In this document: positions 14,172 through 58,005 of the stretch, piece by piece
Numbering within the stretch: the first letter of the stretch is position 1
Layout of the letters: every line of letters begins with the position of its first letter
Assembly (NCBI GenBank): GCA_947085205.1
Contig: CAMTVO010000010.1
Coordinates: forward strand, 1 to 64,000
Direction: 5' to 3'
Source: an uncultured Nitrospiraceae bacterium
GTDB lineage: Bacteria > Nitrospirota > Thermodesulfovibrionia > Thermodesulfovibrionales > Dissulfurispiraceae
DNA: 64,000 nt
The notes under the pieces: generated by a model
What the model was told of the DNA's origin: nothing
Databases searched by the model: none
What the model saw: only the letters and a program-made list of their open reading frames with translations
Program-made: the position numbers and the translations under genes

Positions 14172-14474
14172 TTAGTAACGTCGACCACCACCTGGTCTAC
14201 CGCCCGGTCTTCCTCTGCCTCCCCCTCTTTCTTCCCGGGGACGAGCCTCATTCACATTGACTGCTCTGCCCTTTAACTCTTTCCCATTCATACCGTTAAT
14301 CGCCGACTGGGCTTCCGACGCAGAGGGCATCTCCACAAACCCAAATCCTCTCGACTCCCTCGTAAACTTGTCTCTTACCACGGTGGCAGATTCAACTCTT
14401 CCGAAAGACTCAAAAGCCCTAAGTAAATCCTCATCATTGACATCGCGAGATAAATTGCCGACAAAAATTTTCAT
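14172..14474 (-). CDS. RRM RNA-binding protein with Gly/Arg tail
   Basis: RNP2 IFVGNLS and RNP1 RGFGFVEM. Confidence 0.95.
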   Translation of the reverse strand: MKIFVGNLSRDVNDEDLLRAFESFGRVESATVVRDKFTRESRGFGFVEMPSASEAQSAINGMNGKELKGRAVNVNEARPREERGGGRGRPGGRPGGGRRY

Positions 14475-15820: not shown

Positions 15821-15888
15821 CGAATTTTTTGTTACTGTTTCTCTAAATTCTGCTATAATATCCAAAAACAGAAAGGAGCGGTACTCAA

Positions 15889-16257
15889 ATAGAAAGCAAG
15901 GCTAAGGCATTAGAGGCTGCAAGGGCAGCCCTTGATAAAAAGGCAACGGACACGGTAGTCCTCGAATTAAAAGATATTACAATAATTGCAGATTATTTTG
16001 TAATCTGCTCGGGCGAAAGCATCACACAGGTTAAGGCAATAGCAGAAAACATCGAAAAGGTATTAAAAGAGTACGGGAAAAAGCCGCTGAGCATCGAAGG
16101 TTTGAGTTCTGCCCGATGGATTTTGATGGACTACGGAGATATAATAGTCCATATCTTTGAAGAAGAGACGAGGGCATATTATGAGCTTGAGAAGTTCTGG
16201 CTTGATGCGCCGAGAGTGCCTTACGAAAAGGAAGGGGTTCTCGTAGGGGAAAAGTAG
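15889..16257 (+). CDS. rsfS: Ribosome silencing factor RsfS (Iojap), apparent ATA start
   Basis: My translation: DKKA...IADYFVICSGES..QVKAIA...EG...WILMDYGDIIVHIF...RAYYELEKFW. SD AAGGAG upstream. Missed by the ORF track. Confidence 0.9.
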   Translation: MESKAKALEAARAALDKKATDTVVLELKDITIIADYFVICSGESITQVKAIAENIEKVLKEYGKKPLSIEGLSSARWILMDYGDIIVHIFEEETRAYYELEKFWLDAPRVPYEKEGVLVGEK

Positions 16258-16388: not shown

Positions 16389-17702
16389 ATGGGCAAAATA
16401 GCGATACTGGTATTTTTGGTCTTTCTTGCAGTTCTCGGATTTTTCGCGGTAGAGAATAAGGACATTGTGAGCGTAAAGGTTCCATTTGGGAGCAGTTATG
16501 AGATTCCGAAGATTGCCCTTATACTTCTGTCATCGACGGTTGGCGCACTTGCAATCCTGATTGTTTTTTTCATAAGGGACACAAAGAGGGTCATAGACAA
16601 TCTGCAGTATCAAAAAAGGCAGAAGAAAGAAGCCAAAATTCAGGAATTCTATTCAAGGGCGCTGAATGCCATATTGGGTAATAAAGAGGAAGAGGCGGAA
16701 GAGGCATTGAGCGAGATACTGAAGGAAGACCCGGAACATATCGATGCCCTTTTGAGATTAGGCGACATATCCCTTAGCAATGGAGATTATAAGACAGCAT
16801 TTGAACATTATAAAAAGACTCTGGACATAAGTCCTAAAAACATGCAGGCACTCCTCTCTGTGGAAACTGTGATCGAAAAGATGCAGAGGTACGACGATGC
16901 AGTTAGATACTTGGATGAGATACTCGATATAGATTCAGAAAACCTCACAGCCCTTTACAGAAAGCGCTCAATTCTCGAAAGGAAAGATATGTGGGATGAT
17001 CTGCTTTCTCTTCAGAAAGTAATACTCAAACTTGAGCATAATGAGAACGACAAGCAGAGGGAAGAGAGAAGGTTTTTAGGCTATAAGTATGAATACGCAC
17101 GCGCGAGCCTTGAAAACGGAGAACTGGAGAAGGCTGAAAAGGCATTCAGGACAATGCTCAAGATGGCTGACAACTTTATCCCTGCATATTTAGGTCTGGC
17201 AGAGGTTATGCTGACCAAGGGAGAAACTGAGGAGGCAATAAACTTTCTTGAAAAGGCATACGACCAGCTTAAGTCAATAATAATCCTTGCAAGGCTTGAA
17301 GACCTGCTAATCAATGTCGGCGAGCCGGGAAGGCTGATAAGATTTTACAGGAATGCCATAGCTAAAAATCCTCAGGACAACGGTATCAGATTCCTCCTCG
17401 GAAAGCTTTACTACAGGCTTGAAATGGTTGATGACGCAATGGAGATACTGAACTCGATAGATATGAATGTCTTTTCGGTTCCAGAGCTTTACAGTCTTAA
17501 GGGAGAGTTGTATATAAAGAGAAACCAGATTCCGAGGGCTCTGGATGAGCTTAAAAAGGCATGCGGCATAAAACGTCCTTTCAGGATTCAATACTGCTGC
17601 TCCAATTGTAATTTCAAATCCGAAGACTGGTCGGGGAGATGTCCTCACTGTACTGAATGGAATACCTACAGGCTTGATGTATATGGCACCTGCAAGGCGT
17701 AA
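16389..17702 (+). CDS. LapA/LapB(YciM)-like TPR membrane protein with C-terminal rubredoxin-like domain
   Basis: Two N-terminal TM segments, many TPRs, C-terminal CSNC...W..RCPHCTEWNT. Confidence 0.8.
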   Translation: MGKIAILVFLVFLAVLGFFAVENKDIVSVKVPFGSSYEIPKIALILLSSTVGALAILIVFFIRDTKRVIDNLQYQKRQKKEAKIQEFYSRALNAILGNKEEEAEEALSEILKEDPEHIDALLRLGDISLSNGDYKTAFEHYKKTLDISPKNMQALLSVETVIEKMQRYDDAVRYLDEILDIDSENLTALYRKRSILERKDMWDDLLSLQKVILKLEHNENDKQREERRFLGYKYEYARASLENGELEKAEKAFRTMLKMADNFIPAYLGLAEVMLTKGETEEAINFLEKAYDQLKSIIILARLEDLLINVGEPGRLIRFYRNAIAKNPQDNGIRFLLGKLYYRLEMVDDAMEILNSIDMNVFSVPELYSLKGELYIKRNQIPRALDELKKACGIKRPFRIQYCCSNCNFKSEDWSGRCPHCTEWNTYRLDVYGTCKA

Positions 17703-17724
17703 AGGCAGTGATGAGTTATCAGTA

Positions 17725-18417
17725 ATGAGTAATGAGTTGCAAGATAAAAAAGTTTCAAAACAAAAAAAGAAAACTTCAAAAGAAACCCCATTACCCATTA
17801 CTCATCACGCATCACCGCCGTTAAACGTTGTCCTTGATACAAGTCTCTTTGTTAATCCTGATGTAAGACATTCTTTAGGGAATACCCCTACAGAGGCACT
17901 GGAGACATTCCTTTTCCTTGCAGCGCAGATACATGTTCTTGAATTCTACATGCCCCCTTCCATCTTTGAGGAACTCCTGCACTTTGTGGAGAGGGACAAG
18001 ATACCCGGAGACCTGTTACTGATTCTTCATCAAAAACCCCCAAAAAAACATGAACTGAAGACCCCTGCCTTTCTTCTGTATGAATTGATTGAAGACATAC
18101 GGGAAAGGGTGAATAAGGGATTAAGGGTTGCAGAGAAGGCTGTAAGGAGTGCCGAACACAAAAAGATGGATGAAATCATTCAGGACATGAGGAGAAAGTA
18201 CAGAGAGGCATTGAGGGAGGGCATAATCGACAGTAAGGAGGATGTGGACCTCCTTTTGCTTGCCATGGAACTGGATGCCCTGCTGATTACAGCAGATCAG
18301 GGTTTGATAAAATGGGCTGAAAAGCTTGGTATAAGATGGCTTTTCCCAGAGAAATTCAAGGAATATCTGATGGGTGCTATAAAAAGGACAGCGCTTCTTT
18401 CAGGGGTGAATACTTAG
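17725..18417 (+). CDS. HARP, protein-only RNase P (PIN_5; RNA ligase partner family)
   Basis: VLDTSLFVNP, FYMPPSIFEEL, RERVNKGLRVAEKA, RRKYREALREGIIDSKEDVDLLLLA, ADQGL..WAEKLGI. Start uncertain. Confidence 0.88.
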   Translation: MSNELQDKKVSKQKKKTSKETPLPITHHASPPLNVVLDTSLFVNPDVRHSLGNTPTEALETFLFLAAQIHVLEFYMPPSIFEELLHFVERDKIPGDLLLILHQKPPKKHELKTPAFLLYELIEDIRERVNKGLRVAEKAVRSAEHKKMDEIIQDMRRKYREALREGIIDSKEDVDLLLLAMELDALLITADQGLIKWAEKLGIRWLFPEKFKEYLMGAIKRTALLSGVNT

Positions 18418-19529
18418 TCGAAGAATCCTCGCCCCATAAGTTTTTGCCTTAGCTCTCTTGTTCCCTTTATATAAATCCTGTGAAATCTTGCCTTATAGTA
18501 ATCCCCGGACTTTTCGACAGATACAAGCTGGCTGCGGACTCCTGAGCGATTCAGGTGCTGGATTAATTCGTCTATAGTGTTTTTATTCCTCACTGTGATA
18601 TTAAATATCTCTTTCACGCTTCCACCGCCTTCTATCTCTTTTATGGTCTCTTCAGGAATCAGATACAATGCCTTTGCAGAATCCATTAAATATTCGCTGC
18701 TGAACGGTATCCTGAACTCATTGCAGAAAAATACAGCCCTTAGTATCCTCTGCATGAAGAAGCCTGCCGGAAGCTCTGTTATGAGATGGGCTGTTGCCTG
18801 CAGGTCTCTCAGGCATGACGAGAGGGTCACATATTTTACGGACTTGCCGTTTGAAACAGGCTTGATTACTATACCTTCCCTGCCATTGCTGTCGAGCTCA
18901 AGGACTATCTCTTTTATCTTATTTGTATCAGATGCGCTAAAATGCCCCCATCTCCTTATCTGTTTAATGTTAAATCTTTCAAAGATTTGGTATCGCTCTT
19001 CTATGGAGAGCCTTTTCCCATTTTCATCCATGATGTCAAAGGCAAAGAAGACTACATCTTCGTCAGCATATGGAACAACCTCTGTGTTGTAAGGACTTCC
19101 CGGACCCACAACCTCGCCGCAGATTATGTATTCTGGATATTTTTTAAAGAAATTAAGGTCAATAAGGTCAGAAATTCTGTCTGTCGTAAAGGGGCATATA
19201 AATCCTCCCCGTGTGAATGCAAGTGGAGTGCCGTTTATGACTGCTACCCTCACATTGTAGCCGTCCACCTTTTCCTCGACATAAAATCTGTCTTTGAAGT
19301 ATCGGGATATGCCATTTTGGAGATGAAGAATCCTCATTATCCCCGGATAGCCATTTATAAAACCGCTCTCATAAAAAACAGCGCCCCTTGGAATGTCCTT
19401 ATATTCCTGAGAAAGCCTTACAAATGCGAGTTCATCCCGTTGATATACATGAAGAGAATCTCTCTCTTGAAGTATTGCTATGTCTTTATCCGGAAGGTAT
19501 TTTGTTAAGAAGGGAGGTGGGGTATTCAT
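18414..19529 (-). CDS. ATP-dependent RNA ligase, Rnl3/Pab1020 family
   Basis: Motif I EEKVDGYNVR, TRGGFICPFTT, GEVVG, FFAFDI, REGIVIK, KYVT. Confidence 0.88.
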   Translation of the reverse strand: MNTPPPFLTKYLPDKDIAILQERDSLHVYQRDELAFVRLSQEYKDIPRGAVFYESGFINGYPGIMRILHLQNGISRYFKDRFYVEEKVDGYNVRVAVINGTPLAFTRGGFICPFTTDRISDLIDLNFFKKYPEYIICGEVVGPGSPYNTEVVPYADEDVVFFAFDIMDENGKRLSIEERYQIFERFNIKQIRRWGHFSASDTNKIKEIVLELDSNGREGIVIKPVSNGKSVKYVTLSSCLRDLQATAHLITELPAGFFMQRILRAVFFCNEFRIPFSSEYLMDSAKALYLIPEETIKEIEGGGSVKEIFNITVRNKNTIDELIQHLNRSGVRSQLVSVEKSGDYYKARFHRIYIKGTRELRQKLMGRGFFD

Positions 19530-19678
19530 TGATTGCTTTTTTCTTTCAGTTCTTCTTTTTTTAATGCCTTTTCAATGAGCCTTCTCTTTTTAGAAGAGAC
19601 TATCTTCCCTTTCAAGGAAGATACGGGTATCTGTTCTCTGGATGCTTTTTTGATAAGCTTTATTGTCTCTTTTTTCAT
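19526..19678 (-). CDS. Small basic hypothetical protein (50 aa)
   Basis: MKKETIKLIKKASREQ...KEKSNQ*. Starts just after tRNA-Leu; its stop overlaps the ligase ATG (ATGA). Confidence 0.55.
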   Translation of the reverse strand: MKKETIKLIKKASREQIPVSSLKGKIVSSKKRRLIEKALKKEELKEKSNQ

Positions 19679-19691
19679 TGAAAATAAAAAA

Positions 19692-19775
19692 TGCCGAAGG
19701 CGGGAGTCGAACCCGCACGGCCTTTCGACCACTAGACCCTGAACCTAGCGCGTCTGCCAGTTCCGCCACTTCGGC
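19692..19775 (-). tRNA. tRNA-Leu(CAG), CCA not encoded
   Basis: GCCGAAG acceptor stem, anticodon loop TT-CAG-GG, long variable arm, GGTTCGAC T-loop. Confidence 0.95.
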
Positions 19776-19856
19776 TGGTTTTATTTTACCACAATTCCCA
19801 TAAATGAGTATTAGATGTGCTACAGCAGTTTTATAATGTGTTAAAATATTCAGGCT

Positions 19857-21536
19857 ATGGAAATACAGACCGCTAATTTTATCCGCAATATAGTTTCTGA
19901 AGATGTAAATGCAGGAAAGAATAATGGGAAGGTTATAACCCGATTCCCTCCTGAGCCAAATGGATACCTCCACATCGGACATGCCAAATCCATTTGCCTC
20001 AATTTTGGTCTGGCTGATGAGTTTGGAGGCATCTGCAACCTCCGCTTTGATGATACCAATCCGAGCAAAGAGGAGCAGGAGTATGTTGATTCTATTATTG
20101 AGGATGTCAGGTGGTTGGGCTTTGACTGGGGAGACAGGCTGTACTATGCGTCTGATTATTTCGAGCAGCTTTATGATTATGCCATAGAACTCATCAAAAT
20201 GGGCAAGGCTTATGTCTGCGATTTGAGCACAGAGGAAATAAGAGAGTACCGCGGCACTTTGACAGCGCCTGGTAAAGAGAGCCCATATCGCAACCGTTCT
20301 GTAGAGGAAAACCTCGATTTGTTCCAGCGAATGCGTAAAGGCGAGTTCGAGGATGGTTCAAGGGTGCTCAGGGCAAAAATAGATATGGCATCGGGCAATA
20401 TCAATATGCGAGACCCTGTGATGTATCGTATAAAACATGAAGCTCACCACAGGACTGGCGGCAAGTGGTGCATATACCCGATGTATGACTGGGCTCATGG
20501 CCTTTCTGATTCCATAGAAGGCATAACTCATTCCATATGTACAATGGAGTATGAGGACCATCGTCCTTTGTACGACTGGTTCCTTGACCACTTGAATATA
20601 TTTCATCCGCAGCAGATAGAATTTGCACGTCTCAATTTAAGCCATACGGTGCTGAGCAAACGTAAACTTCTGAAACTTGTGAATGACAGGTATGTTGCAG
20701 GGTGGAATGACCCGAGAATGCCGACCCTTGCAGGTATGAGGAGGCGCGGTTATACGCCTGATGCAATAAGGAACTTCTGTGAGCGCATAGGAGTTGCCAA
20801 AAAGGAAAGCCTTGTGGATATGGGGCTGCTGGAATTCTGTGTCCGTGAGCATTTGAACAAGATTGCCCCCCGTGTGATGGCTGTGCTGCATCCGCTCAAG
20901 GTGGTCATCATCAACTATCCTGAAGACAAGGTTGAATATCTTGATGCCGTAAATAATCCAGAAGACCCTTCAGCAGGCACAAGGAAAGTTCCGTTTTCAA
21001 AGGTGCTTTATATAGAAAAAGATGATTTCATGGAAGACCCTCCAAAGCAGTTTTTCAGACTCGCTCCTGGGCGTGAAGTCCGTTTAAGATACGCATATTT
21101 TATTAAATGCGAGAATGTTGTTACGGATGAAAACGGCGAAATAGTAGAACTTCACTGCACCTATGATCCTGCTACAAAAGGCGGTGATTCGCCTGACGGA
21201 CGAAAGGTCAAAGCAACATTGCATTGGGTCTCTGTAAAACACGTCATTGAGACAGAAGTGAGGCTTTATGACATGCTTTTTACAAAAAGAGACCCCAATG
21301 ATGTTGCGGAGGACAAAGACTTCACGGATTATATAAATCCAAAATCCATTGAAGTCCTGAAGTCATGCCGCCTTGAACCAAGCCTGAAAGACGCAAAGCC
21401 TGGAGACAGGTTCCAGTTCGAAAGGCTCGGCTATTTCTGCGTTGATACCGTCGATTCCATGCCCGAAAAACCCGTCTTTAACAGAATTGTAACATTAAAG
21501 GACGAATGGGCGAAGATAATGAAGGGGAAGAAATAG
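19857..21536 (+). CDS. glnS: Glutaminyl-tRNA synthetase
   Basis: [45 protein letters not shown]. Confidence 0.96.
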
Positions 21537-57529: not shown

Positions 57530-57607
<78 letters not shown>

Positions 57608-57608
57608 T

Positions 57609-57685
<77 letters not shown>

Positions 57686-57694
57686 TATACGAAC

Positions 57695-57770
57695 GGTGGG
57701 CGTAGCTCAATGGCAGAGCACTGGACTGTTGCTCCAGTGGTTGCGGGTTCGATCCCCGTCGCCCACCCCA
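57695..57770 (+). tRNA. tRNA with His-type body (G-1:C73) but GTT anticodon
   Basis: G+GTGGGCG...CGCCCAC+C+CCA 8-bp acceptor; loop CT-GTT-GC. Confidence 0.9.
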
Positions 57771-57868
57771 AAAATCGTGATGGGTAAAGCGTGAAGCGTA
57801 AAGAGTCAAAAATTTTTAGCATTAAAATCCATACTCATTACCGATTACTCGTTACGGATTACGAATAT

Positions 57869-57942
57869 GCGCCTGTAGCTCAGCGGATTAGAGCATCGGC
57901 CTCCGGAGCCGAGGGTCGGAGGTTCGAATCCTCTCAGGCGCG
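57869..57942 (+). tRNA. tRNA-Arg(CCG), CCA not encoded
   Basis: GCGCCTG acceptor, loop CT-CCG-GA. Confidence 0.95.
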
Positions 57943-58005
57943 TTATTAGTGAATAGTTATTAGTATTTAGTTAGTTTATTTTTACTATTCACTGTTCACT
58001 ATGCA

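Follow-up and report, generated by a model that had tools for sequence, protein, structure and literature searches.

The locus and its genes

The analysis reported here concerns a stretch of 64,000 nucleotides (nt), referred to throughout as the window, which makes up positions 1 to 64,000 of contig CAMTVO010000010.1 in the draft genome of an uncultured Nitrospiraceae bacterium (GenBank assembly GCA_947085205.1; order Thermodesulfovibrionales, family Dissulfurispiraceae). Its center of interest is a pair of convergent genes, one of which encodes HARP, a protein-only RNase P, and the other an ATP-dependent RNA ligase of the Rnl3/Pab1020 type. The ligase gene is led by a small open reading frame (ORF) and by a gene for tRNA-Leu(CAG), and the gene directly upstream of HARP is lapB-like. 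The features of this segment, in window coordinates, are:

16389..17702, plus strand: lapB/yciM-like gene (many TPR matches in Pfam, and PF18073, Zn_ribbon_LapB)
17674..18417, plus strand: HARP, protein-only RNase P of the PIN_5 family (PF08745, E 1.4e-60; TIGR03875, E 2.3e-61)
18414..19529, minus strand: Rnl3/Pab1020-type ATP-dependent RNA ligase (TIGR01209, E 4.6e-98; PF09414; PF18330)
19526..19678, minus strand: small ORF for a basic protein of 50 amino acids (aa), called from its open frame and codon-position pattern
19692..19775, minus strand: tRNA-Leu(CAG) without an encoded CCA (ARAGORN)
19783..19791, minus strand: extended -10-like element TGGTAAAAT, a putative promoter read from the sequence

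The HARP and ligase genes meet tail to tail, and their stop codons share 4 nt (18414-18417). At the other end of the ligase gene, the stop codon of the small ORF overlaps the ligase start codon as ATGA (19526-19529), and 13 nt separate the ATG of the small ORF from the 3' end of the tRNA-Leu(CAG) gene, which is directly followed by a run of T residues. A first-pass annotation, made from the letters of the DNA, had described the locus in these terms and had suggested that it might be a bacterial module for cutting and ligating, or circularizing, RNA, with the small protein as a possible third subunit. Its gene calls held up: profile matches to PF08745 and TIGR03875 identify the HARP gene, those to TIGR01209, PF09414 and PF18330 identify the ligase gene, and the tail-to-tail overlap, the ATGA overlap and the position of a Lys-rich 50-aa ORF just downstream of a CCA-less tRNA-Leu were all described correctly, as was the background that it gave on the HARP and Rnl3 families.

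HARP as the probable sole RNase P

The HARP product scores 204.7 bits against PF08745 (PIN_5; cut-off 27) and 206.8 bits against TIGR03875 (cut-off 95.3), an NCBIfam model that carries the name 'RNA ligase partner protein', and its best solved relatives are without exception chains named 'RNA-free ribonuclease P', with 7e8k at the top (E 6.7e-66) and further matches down to 7og5 (E 4.6e-41). The PIN domain extends over approximately 17827-18372. In the numbering of a 247-aa product, Asp55 (in VLDTS), Asp186 and Asp190 (in DSKED) and Asp208 (in TADQG) are identical residues in all five of the solved HARPs shown; as we read the alignment, they would correspond to D7, D138, D142 and D161 of the HARP Aq880, which are named as indispensable aspartates in the part of the published account drawn on here (PMC8266387). 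The PIN domain is preceded by a Lys/Ser-rich extension that varies in length and sequence among relatives. A start of the form MAPA[K/R]RK recurs among them and is found in the window at 17683, within the end of the upstream gene. The true start of HARP is uncertain, with 17677 or 17683 as likely positions and an in-frame ATG further in, at 17725, as the other candidate.

The genome that carries this gene, a draft of 1.885 Mb in 65 contigs that is 89.7% complete, contains a single PIN_5 copy, and it gave no match to the RNase P RNA families RF00010 and RF00011 (bacterial types A and B) and RF00373 (archaeal), or to PF00825, the family of the protein subunit encoded by rnpA. The RNA was searched for in this genome and 40 relatives, and a larger sample of 151 genomes of the order was tabulated on the basis of rnpA; as all of these genomes are drafts, the genes for the ribonucleoprotein (RNP) form of RNase P are spoken of as not found, which stops short of proven absence. 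Among the 41 genomes (the present one included), rnpB and rnpA were detected in the identical seven, and HARP in 33. For the family to which the present genome belongs the picture is uniform: neither rnpB nor rnpA was found in any of 24 genomes, 22 of which have HARP, and rnpA was likewise missing from all 15 members of the family within the larger sample. The search for rnpA and rnpB, which the first-pass annotation had put forward as a check, was thus an informative one. Because neither gene was found in the genome or in its family, we regard HARP as probably the housekeeping enzyme and only RNase P of this cell, rather than as the nuclease of a specialized module.

The same state appears to extend well beyond the family. 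HARP was found in 104 and rnpA in 56 of the 151 genomes, with 91 genomes having HARP only, 43 rnpA only, 13 both and 4 neither. The 13 genomes with both genes come mostly from one family (f8, in our own numbering of families). Eight families have no rnpA and have HARP in all, or all but one, of the genomes sampled; three others have rnpA without HARP, one is mostly dual, one consists mostly of rnpA genomes together with two HARP genomes, and one is represented by a single dual genome. A protein-only RNase P appears, in other words, to have replaced the RNA-based enzyme across most families of the Thermodesulfovibrionales (91/151 genomes, 8/13 families).

An endonuclease capable of generating tRNA 5' ends must be needed in the present genome, since some of its tRNA genes stand in tightly packed clusters. 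There are 43 of these genes in addition to one for tmRNA, and the spacers in some clusters measure 1-10 nt. The window itself holds one such group:

57530-57943, plus strand: tRNA-Pro, tRNA-Arg and tRNA-Asn, spaced 1 and 10 nt apart, with a second tRNA-Arg 97 nt beyond

The 3' CCA is encoded in 30 of the 43 tRNA genes and is missing from the other 13. The published study of the HARP-Rnl3 pair (PMC12153264) cites one HARP that is about 10-fold slower on pre-tRNAs bearing CCA, and four HARPs from bacteria have been noted as lacking activity on pre-tRNA. A genome with HARP as its only detected RNase P and with tRNA genes that mostly encode CCA is, from a biochemical standpoint, a notable combination.

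According to the portions of the literature available to us, most bacteria that carry HARP also possess rnpA and rnpB (PMC10941002; PMC12439589), and HARP alone is encoded by 'a few' genera within the Aquificae and Nitrospirae (Daniels et al. 2019, PMC6380272). Relative to that description, the HARP-only state is far commoner in the Thermodesulfovibrionales, and the order may represent a larger natural experiment in protein-only RNase P than the Aquificaceae. A full-text search of the literature for HARP and RNase P in Thermodesulfovibrio turned up only PMC12153264.

The gene directly upstream of HARP encodes a protein with an N-terminal membrane helix, TPR repeats and a C-terminal zinc ribbon of the LapB type; NCBIfam models for LapB match it over their full length at scores under the cut-off. 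It runs at its 3' end into the HARP reading frame, and a gene of this kind stands directly upstream of HARP at 18 of 20 loci in one set of HARP neighborhoods and at 24 of 27 in a second set that partly overlaps the first. The lapB-like gene probably opens the HARP operon, and since it precedes HARP at most loci, HARP would seem to belong to a conserved operon that excludes the ligase. Such an operon would join a gene of the envelope-biogenesis type to an RNase P.

The ligase as an optional accessory

The ligase scores 328.4 bits against TIGR01209 (cut-off 136.9), 90.5 bits against PF09414 and 55.8 bits against the Lig_C family PF18330, and it matches over its full length the solved structures 8uce (E 1.3e-74) and 2vug, which is Pab1020 (E 1.4e-71). 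In the motif EEKVDGYN, Lys87 and Gly90 are invariant among 14 relatives and Asp89 is kept in at least 90% of them; Lys87 is presumably the adenylatable lysine of what we take to be motif I (KxDG).

The association of HARP with Rnl3 and the convergent orientation of their genes have already been published (Seshadri and Gopalan, mBio 2025, PMC12153264). That report covers 751 HARP-positive genomes, of which 89% have the ligase, and every ligase-positive genome has HARP. Among the ligase-positive genomes, the two genes are co-localized in 127 of the 164 from bacteria and in 163 of the 501 from archaea, in an arrangement that is 'typically bidirectional', and the Thermodesulfovibrionales are among the bacterial orders listed; the rows for this order seen in the supplement comprise nine HARP-positive genomes, one of which is ligase-positive with the genes co-localized and convergent. 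At the present locus both genes lie within the distance of at most 5 kb, and in the typically convergent orientation, that describe the published pair (PMC12153264). The pairing found here is a rediscovery of a known one, and its value is mostly as context. The same holds for the notion of a module that cuts and ligates RNA in bacteria, which is a published hypothesis for the HARP-Rnl3 pair: HARP would trim RNAs that the ligase would then circularize (PMC12153264).

Within the order, a ligase was found in 33 of the 151 genomes (in 31 of them over the cut-off), and 32 of the 33 also have HARP; the lone match without HARP is a fragment that scores 35 bits and comes from a genome that is 89% complete. 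Sorted by the type of RNase P, the ligase is present in none of the 43 rnpA-only genomes, in 24 of the 91 HARP-only genomes and in 8 of the 13 dual ones, and 72 of the 104 HARP-positive genomes are without it. Where both genes are present, the ligase is convergent to HARP within approximately 700 nt in 27 of 32 genomes, which are spread over nine families; it lies on another contig in four genomes, and in one it is 32 kb away and broken. This last ligase (genome G074, contig C10, 6886-8074) is split in two, contains an in-frame TGA and has the look of a copy in decay. Trees of the two proteins were built for nine genomes as a test of co-inheritance, a motif filter having removed six of the 15 ligase rows; none of the six inner branches of the HARP tree was supported, so that no conclusion is based on them, and the terminal branches were longer for the ligase (median 0.19) than for HARP (0.069).

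Since the ligase occurs almost exclusively in HARP-positive genomes while most of the HARP-positive genomes do without it, the dependence between the two looks one-sided. This pattern fits a ligase that serves as an accessory, is optional and has some tie to HARP, and it does not agree with an obligate two-enzyme machine or with a toxin-antitoxin pair. It also constrains the hypotheses of cooperation that have been published. One form of such cooperation would have HARP, alone or with a 3' nuclease, produce 5'-phosphate and 3'-OH ends on particular non-tRNA RNAs for Rnl3 to join or circularize, alongside the housekeeping role of HARP and with the gene overlap keeping the two activities linked. 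The nesting of the ligase within HARP-positive genomes, its absence from every rnpA-only genome and the convergent adjacency across nine families are what such a partnership might produce. However, HARP can evidently do without the ligase, the two genes would belong to different transcription units, no biochemical link between the enzymes has been reported, the substrates known so far, circular C/D box sRNAs, come from archaea (PMC12153264), and shared descent inflates the co-occurrence. We hold this cooperation to be possible, though on present evidence doubtful.

A toxin-antitoxin-like relationship, with the PIN nuclease as the toxin and the ligase as its antidote, is among the ideas considered in PMC12153264, and it draws on the membership of HARP in a VapC-like PIN_5 group and on the adjacency of the ligase gene. 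It would leave 72 genomes with a nuclease that has no partner, and it sits badly with the place of HARP beside a gene of the housekeeping type in a conserved operon and with its being the only RNase P candidate found. The idea was also judged unlikely by those who considered it, from a Thermococcus ligase knockout (PMC12153264), and we find it extremely improbable here.

tRNA-Leu(CAG) and a variable slot

The tRNA-Leu gene, which the first-pass annotation had counted as part of the unit, has the characteristics of an ordinary tRNA gene. It is the only tRNA-Leu(CAG) gene in the assembly, which makes it the housekeeping copy, and with 13 of the 43 tRNA genes lacking an encoded CCA, its CCA-less state is not special. 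Of the two sets mentioned above, the first has this tRNA gene downstream of HARP at 8 of its 20 loci and the second at 12 of its 27, whether or not a ligase is present. The facing arrangement of tRNA-Leu and HARP is an ancestral synteny that is independent of the ligase, and a special role for the tRNA is not borne out.

What lies between the 3' end of HARP and the tRNA-Leu gene varies from one relative to another: it can be a 37-nt spacer (genome G029 and locus L060 in our numbering), the small ORF, the ligase, both of these or unrelated genes. The unrelated cargo differs between relatives (L042, 5428-5811; L044, 4277-4663; L064, 3230-3595; L061, 1198-2404), and examples are a protein of 127-128 aa with an N-terminal hydrophobic segment that might anchor it in the membrane, a gene of 425 aa and an ORF of 121 aa which, judged by eye, resembles a CBS-domain protein. 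Such diversity invites the view that the adjacency of HARP and ligase is without meaning and that the ligase is just one cargo of a variable slot, whose occupants range from 37 nt of spacer through the small ORF alone, the ligase alone or both to the membrane-anchored, CBS-domain-like and 425-aa products. Convergent HARP-ligase adjacency is also seen, however, in families in which no tRNA-Leu gene is nearby (for example in G031 and G040), and the published co-localizations (127/164 bacterial and 163/501 archaeal genomes, PMC12153264) are hard to explain by one local slot. An adjacency without meaning is on these grounds unlikely.

Between the end of the element TGGTAAAAT (19783-19791, minus strand) and the first base of tRNA-Leu there are 7 nt, and an element of the form TGnTA[A/G]AAT is present 7-9 nt upstream of tRNA-Leu in 11 of 17 related loci. 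We infer that TGGTAAAAT may be an extended -10 promoter element, which would predict a tRNA 5' leader of about 0-2 nt, i.e. an almost leaderless transcript, in a genome that probably depends on HARP. If that prediction holds, tRNA-Leu(CAG) would be a poor candidate for a special substrate of HARP. A generic scan for promoters and terminators gave fewer sites than shuffled controls and none that were useful, and TGGTAAAAT was not on its list. Many -10-like hexamers also occur 0-16 nt upstream of tRNA genes across the genome, in a scan that had no control set and on which no claim is based here.

In four species the gap between tRNA-Leu and the small ORF is 11-13 nt. Such a gap leaves no room for a separate promoter, and the small ORF and ligase would most simply be read through from the promoter of the tRNA. 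In genome G021, tRNA-Leu, small ORF and ligase stand beside glnS on one contig and lapB and HARP on another, a separation that makes the boundary between the two putative transcription units visible. Public sequencing runs over 17600-19900 comprised six DNA runs and no RNA run. In cultured relatives, the fixed lapB-like operon partner of HARP and the tRNA-led ligase transcript could serve as handles for transcript mapping.

A narrow orphan family encoded by the small ORF

The product of the small ORF has 17 Lys/Arg residues among its 50 aa and a net charge of about +11. The frame remains open across eight species, in which the first 41 codons can be aligned gap-free and the variable sites are distributed 21:8:35 over codon positions 1, 2 and 3; on account of this codon-position pattern and the open frame, the small ORF is a genuine gene. 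A set of 5.8 billion proteins contains 60 homologues of 27-84 aa that are unnamed or called 'hypothetical', and the organism labels visible among them are Nitrospirae, Nitrospirota, Thermodesulfovibrionales or Dissulfurispira. A profile search of 1.84 billion representatives gave 22 clusters, all of small relatives, with no informative fused form among them. There was no match in Pfam or NCBIfam, the ESM Atlas gave only unnamed clusters (scores 0.89-0.90), and a Foldseek search of the Protein Data Bank (PDB) with the predicted structure returned one row with an E value of 8.9. That structure, an AlphaFold2 (AF2) model with a mean pLDDT of 76.5, is a helical hairpin with helices at residues 3-16, 19-22 and 29-49. 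The ORF was found in 25 of 317 genomes of the order, and the protein constitutes a new and narrow orphan family that is limited to the Thermodesulfovibrionales.

Within the family of the present genome the small ORF always lies just 3' of tRNA-Leu(CAG). It is accompanied by the ligase in the present genome and in G013, G021, G064, G075, G124 and G165, and it stands without the ligase in G018, G142 and G183. Neither HARP nor ligase accompanies it in G058, G128, G146, G161 and G148, and in the families f12 and f4 it occurs in rnpA genomes that lack both HARP and ligase and in which its neighborhoods are unrelated. In the 151-genome sample it is present in 7 of the 31 ligase-positive genomes over the cut-off, and 7 of its 15 firm carriers have no ligase. 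Conversely, the ligase directly follows tRNA-Leu, with no space for the small ORF, in G008, G007, G036 and L071, and G008 belongs to the same genus (g9) as four carriers of the small ORF. The ATGA overlap between small ORF and ligase is kept in five species. In another family, it is a different downstream gene that shares 4 nt with the end of the small ORF, which means that such an overlap is not specific to the ligase.

These observations bear on the suggestion that the locus encodes a three-part module, with the 50-aa protein serving the ligase (or HARP) as a subunit or specificity factor and with tRNA-Leu as a substrate. The retention of the ATGA overlap in five species, the strongly basic and helical character of the protein, as is often the case for small RNA-binding proteins, and the joint presence of small ORF, ligase and tRNA-Leu in G021 even though HARP is elsewhere are all in keeping with such a module. 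The small ORF is not co-conserved beside Rnl3, however, as the counts on both sides attest (7/31 and 7/15), although the first-pass annotation had itself made such conservation a test of its reading; tRNA-Leu can be followed immediately by the ligase, even within genus g9; five carriers have neither enzyme; other families place the small ORF in unrelated contexts, in one of them overlapping a different gene; and the tRNA is the sole copy of its kind and hence needed for housekeeping. The claim of a third subunit is not sustained by this distribution, and we give a three-part module very little credence. Predictions of a complex between the small protein and the ligase (three runs, with scores of 0.00, 0.58 and 0.00) gave no verdict either way.

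The small protein is lineage-specific and probably binds nucleic acids. It does not look like a dedicated subunit of HARP or of the ligase and might share its tRNA-led transcript by happenstance, and nothing yet ties it to RNA ligation. A more local arrangement might be envisaged, in which this orphan protein of 48-56 aa was recruited as an RNA-binding helper of Rnl3 in a single subclade of the family, made up of the genus of the present genome and of g9, g14 and g22, with the ATGA overlap fixing the ratio of the two products and with the processing of tRNA-Leu(CAG) by HARP and a 3' nuclease controlling the release of the ligase mRNA. If true, this would link tRNA maturation to the supply of RNA ligase in a bacterium that lives on a protein-only RNase P; we rate it as a long shot.

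Two structural features of this region were also considered. A 10-bp terminator-like hairpin within the small ORF (19601-19623) is not kept in seven related sequences and was dropped. At L050, L051, L052 and L062, the spacer between tRNA-Leu and the small ORF measures 52-53 nt and contains a GC-poor hairpin with a stem of approximately 11 bp, whose sequence differs between species pairs and which could be a signal for processing or attenuation. The idea that small-protein genes are generally adjacent to tRNA genes was rejected: beyond the family of the present genome, a tRNA gene lies within 200 nt in two contexts only, among 17 locus rows of which three are duplicates or fragments.

Two probable transcription units meeting tail to tail

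The explanation that we consider likely is that two transcription units meet tail to tail at this locus, with HARP as the likely sole RNase P, the ligase as an optional component and the small protein as no dedicated subunit. The first unit would consist of the lapB-like gene followed by HARP, whose product would remove the 5' leaders of all pre-tRNAs, including those that arise from tightly packed clusters. The second unit would consist of tRNA-Leu(CAG), the small ORF and Rnl3, read from a promoter directly before the tRNA. If the CCA-less tRNA is cut off at its 3' end, what remains would be an mRNA with a leader of ~13 nt, on which the ligase might be translated by termination and reinitiation at the ATGA. 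The ligase would seal or circularize, in an ATP-dependent manner, RNAs with a 5'-phosphate and a 3'-OH, as an optional accessory which genomes of the order, where they have it, retain almost exclusively beside HARP.

Several considerations weigh against this explanation, or at least against parts of it. The missing rnpA and rnpB in a draft that is 89.7% complete would be weak evidence by themselves, and it is the family-wide result that carries the argument; the search for the RNase P RNA covered 41 genomes only, and the order-wide table depends on rnpA. The nesting of the ligase in HARP-positive genomes and the near-constant convergent adjacency suggest some functional or regulatory link between the two, which the explanation leaves unspecified. 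The relatives are not independent of each other, and the counts given above overstate the number of evolutionary events. A local partnership between the small protein and the ligase would likewise be compatible with the ATGA coupling, which is kept in one subclade. Finally, the co-transcription, the tRNA 3' processing and the translational coupling proposed for the second unit are all deduced from the arrangement of the DNA. What the sequences show directly is which genes are present, how they overlap, how they are conserved and that genes for an RNP RNase P were not found; the enzymatic activities and any cooperation of HARP with the ligase are, like the transcription units, deductions from these.

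Neighboring genes

The first-pass annotation had placed the locus among genes of translation. The neighbors with family matches are rsmE, the lapB-like gene, glnS, a Trm112-like gene and gltX, and three of the four translation genes that it named (rsmE, glnS and gltX) are established in this way, the fourth (rsfS) by resemblance only. Two further features of this neighborhood are:

14172-14474, minus strand: RNA-binding protein of 100 aa with an RRM domain (PF00076, E 4e-24) and a Gly/Arg-rich tail, upstream of rsmE
15859-16257, plus strand: RsfS-like open frame of 132 codons from stop to stop, by resemblance only

The RsfS-like frame has no ATG, GTG or TTG ahead of codon 82, which probably points to a non-canonical start codon or else to a sequence error in that place.

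Comparison with known systems

The locus agrees with the published HARP-Rnl3 pair in that both families are present, adjacent and convergent, in an order that is among those listed for the pair. It differs in the order-wide frequency of the ligase, which was found in 32 of 104 HARP-positive genomes of the Thermodesulfovibrionales as against 89% of the HARP-positive genomes overall (PMC12153264), and in that the ligase gene is led here by tRNA-Leu(CAG) and a small ORF.

With Aq880 of Aquifex aeolicus and the other HARPs of the Aquificaceae, which serve as the sole RNase P after the loss of rnpA and rnpB, the HARP of the window shares the PIN_5 family, the four Asp positions and a genome in which the genes for the RNP enzyme were not found. 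It differs from them in its host, a member of the Nitrospirota, in the variable basic extension that appears to precede its PIN domain and in its seemingly fixed place after a lapB-like gene; its nearest solved relatives are 7e8k and 7e8j, and not the chains that score at about 1e-46. The ligase, for its part, resembles Pab1020 and the archaeal Rnl3 enzymes (2vug, 8uce and 5d1o, with 3qwu as a bacterial example) in its full-length match, its Lig_C domain and its KxDG motif. Unlike the archaeal enzymes, it belongs to a bacterial host without known C/D box sRNA substrates, and circularization or dimerization is for this protein a prediction.

The gene order of the second unit brings to mind the thrU-tyrU-glyT-thrT-tufB operon of E. 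coli, a mixed operon that is led by tRNA genes. In both cases a tRNA gene stands directly ahead of coding genes, with no space for a separate promoter. The two differ in that the co-transcription proposed for the present locus is a reading of its gene order, and in that the genes downstream of the tRNA encode here a small orphan protein and an RNA ligase.

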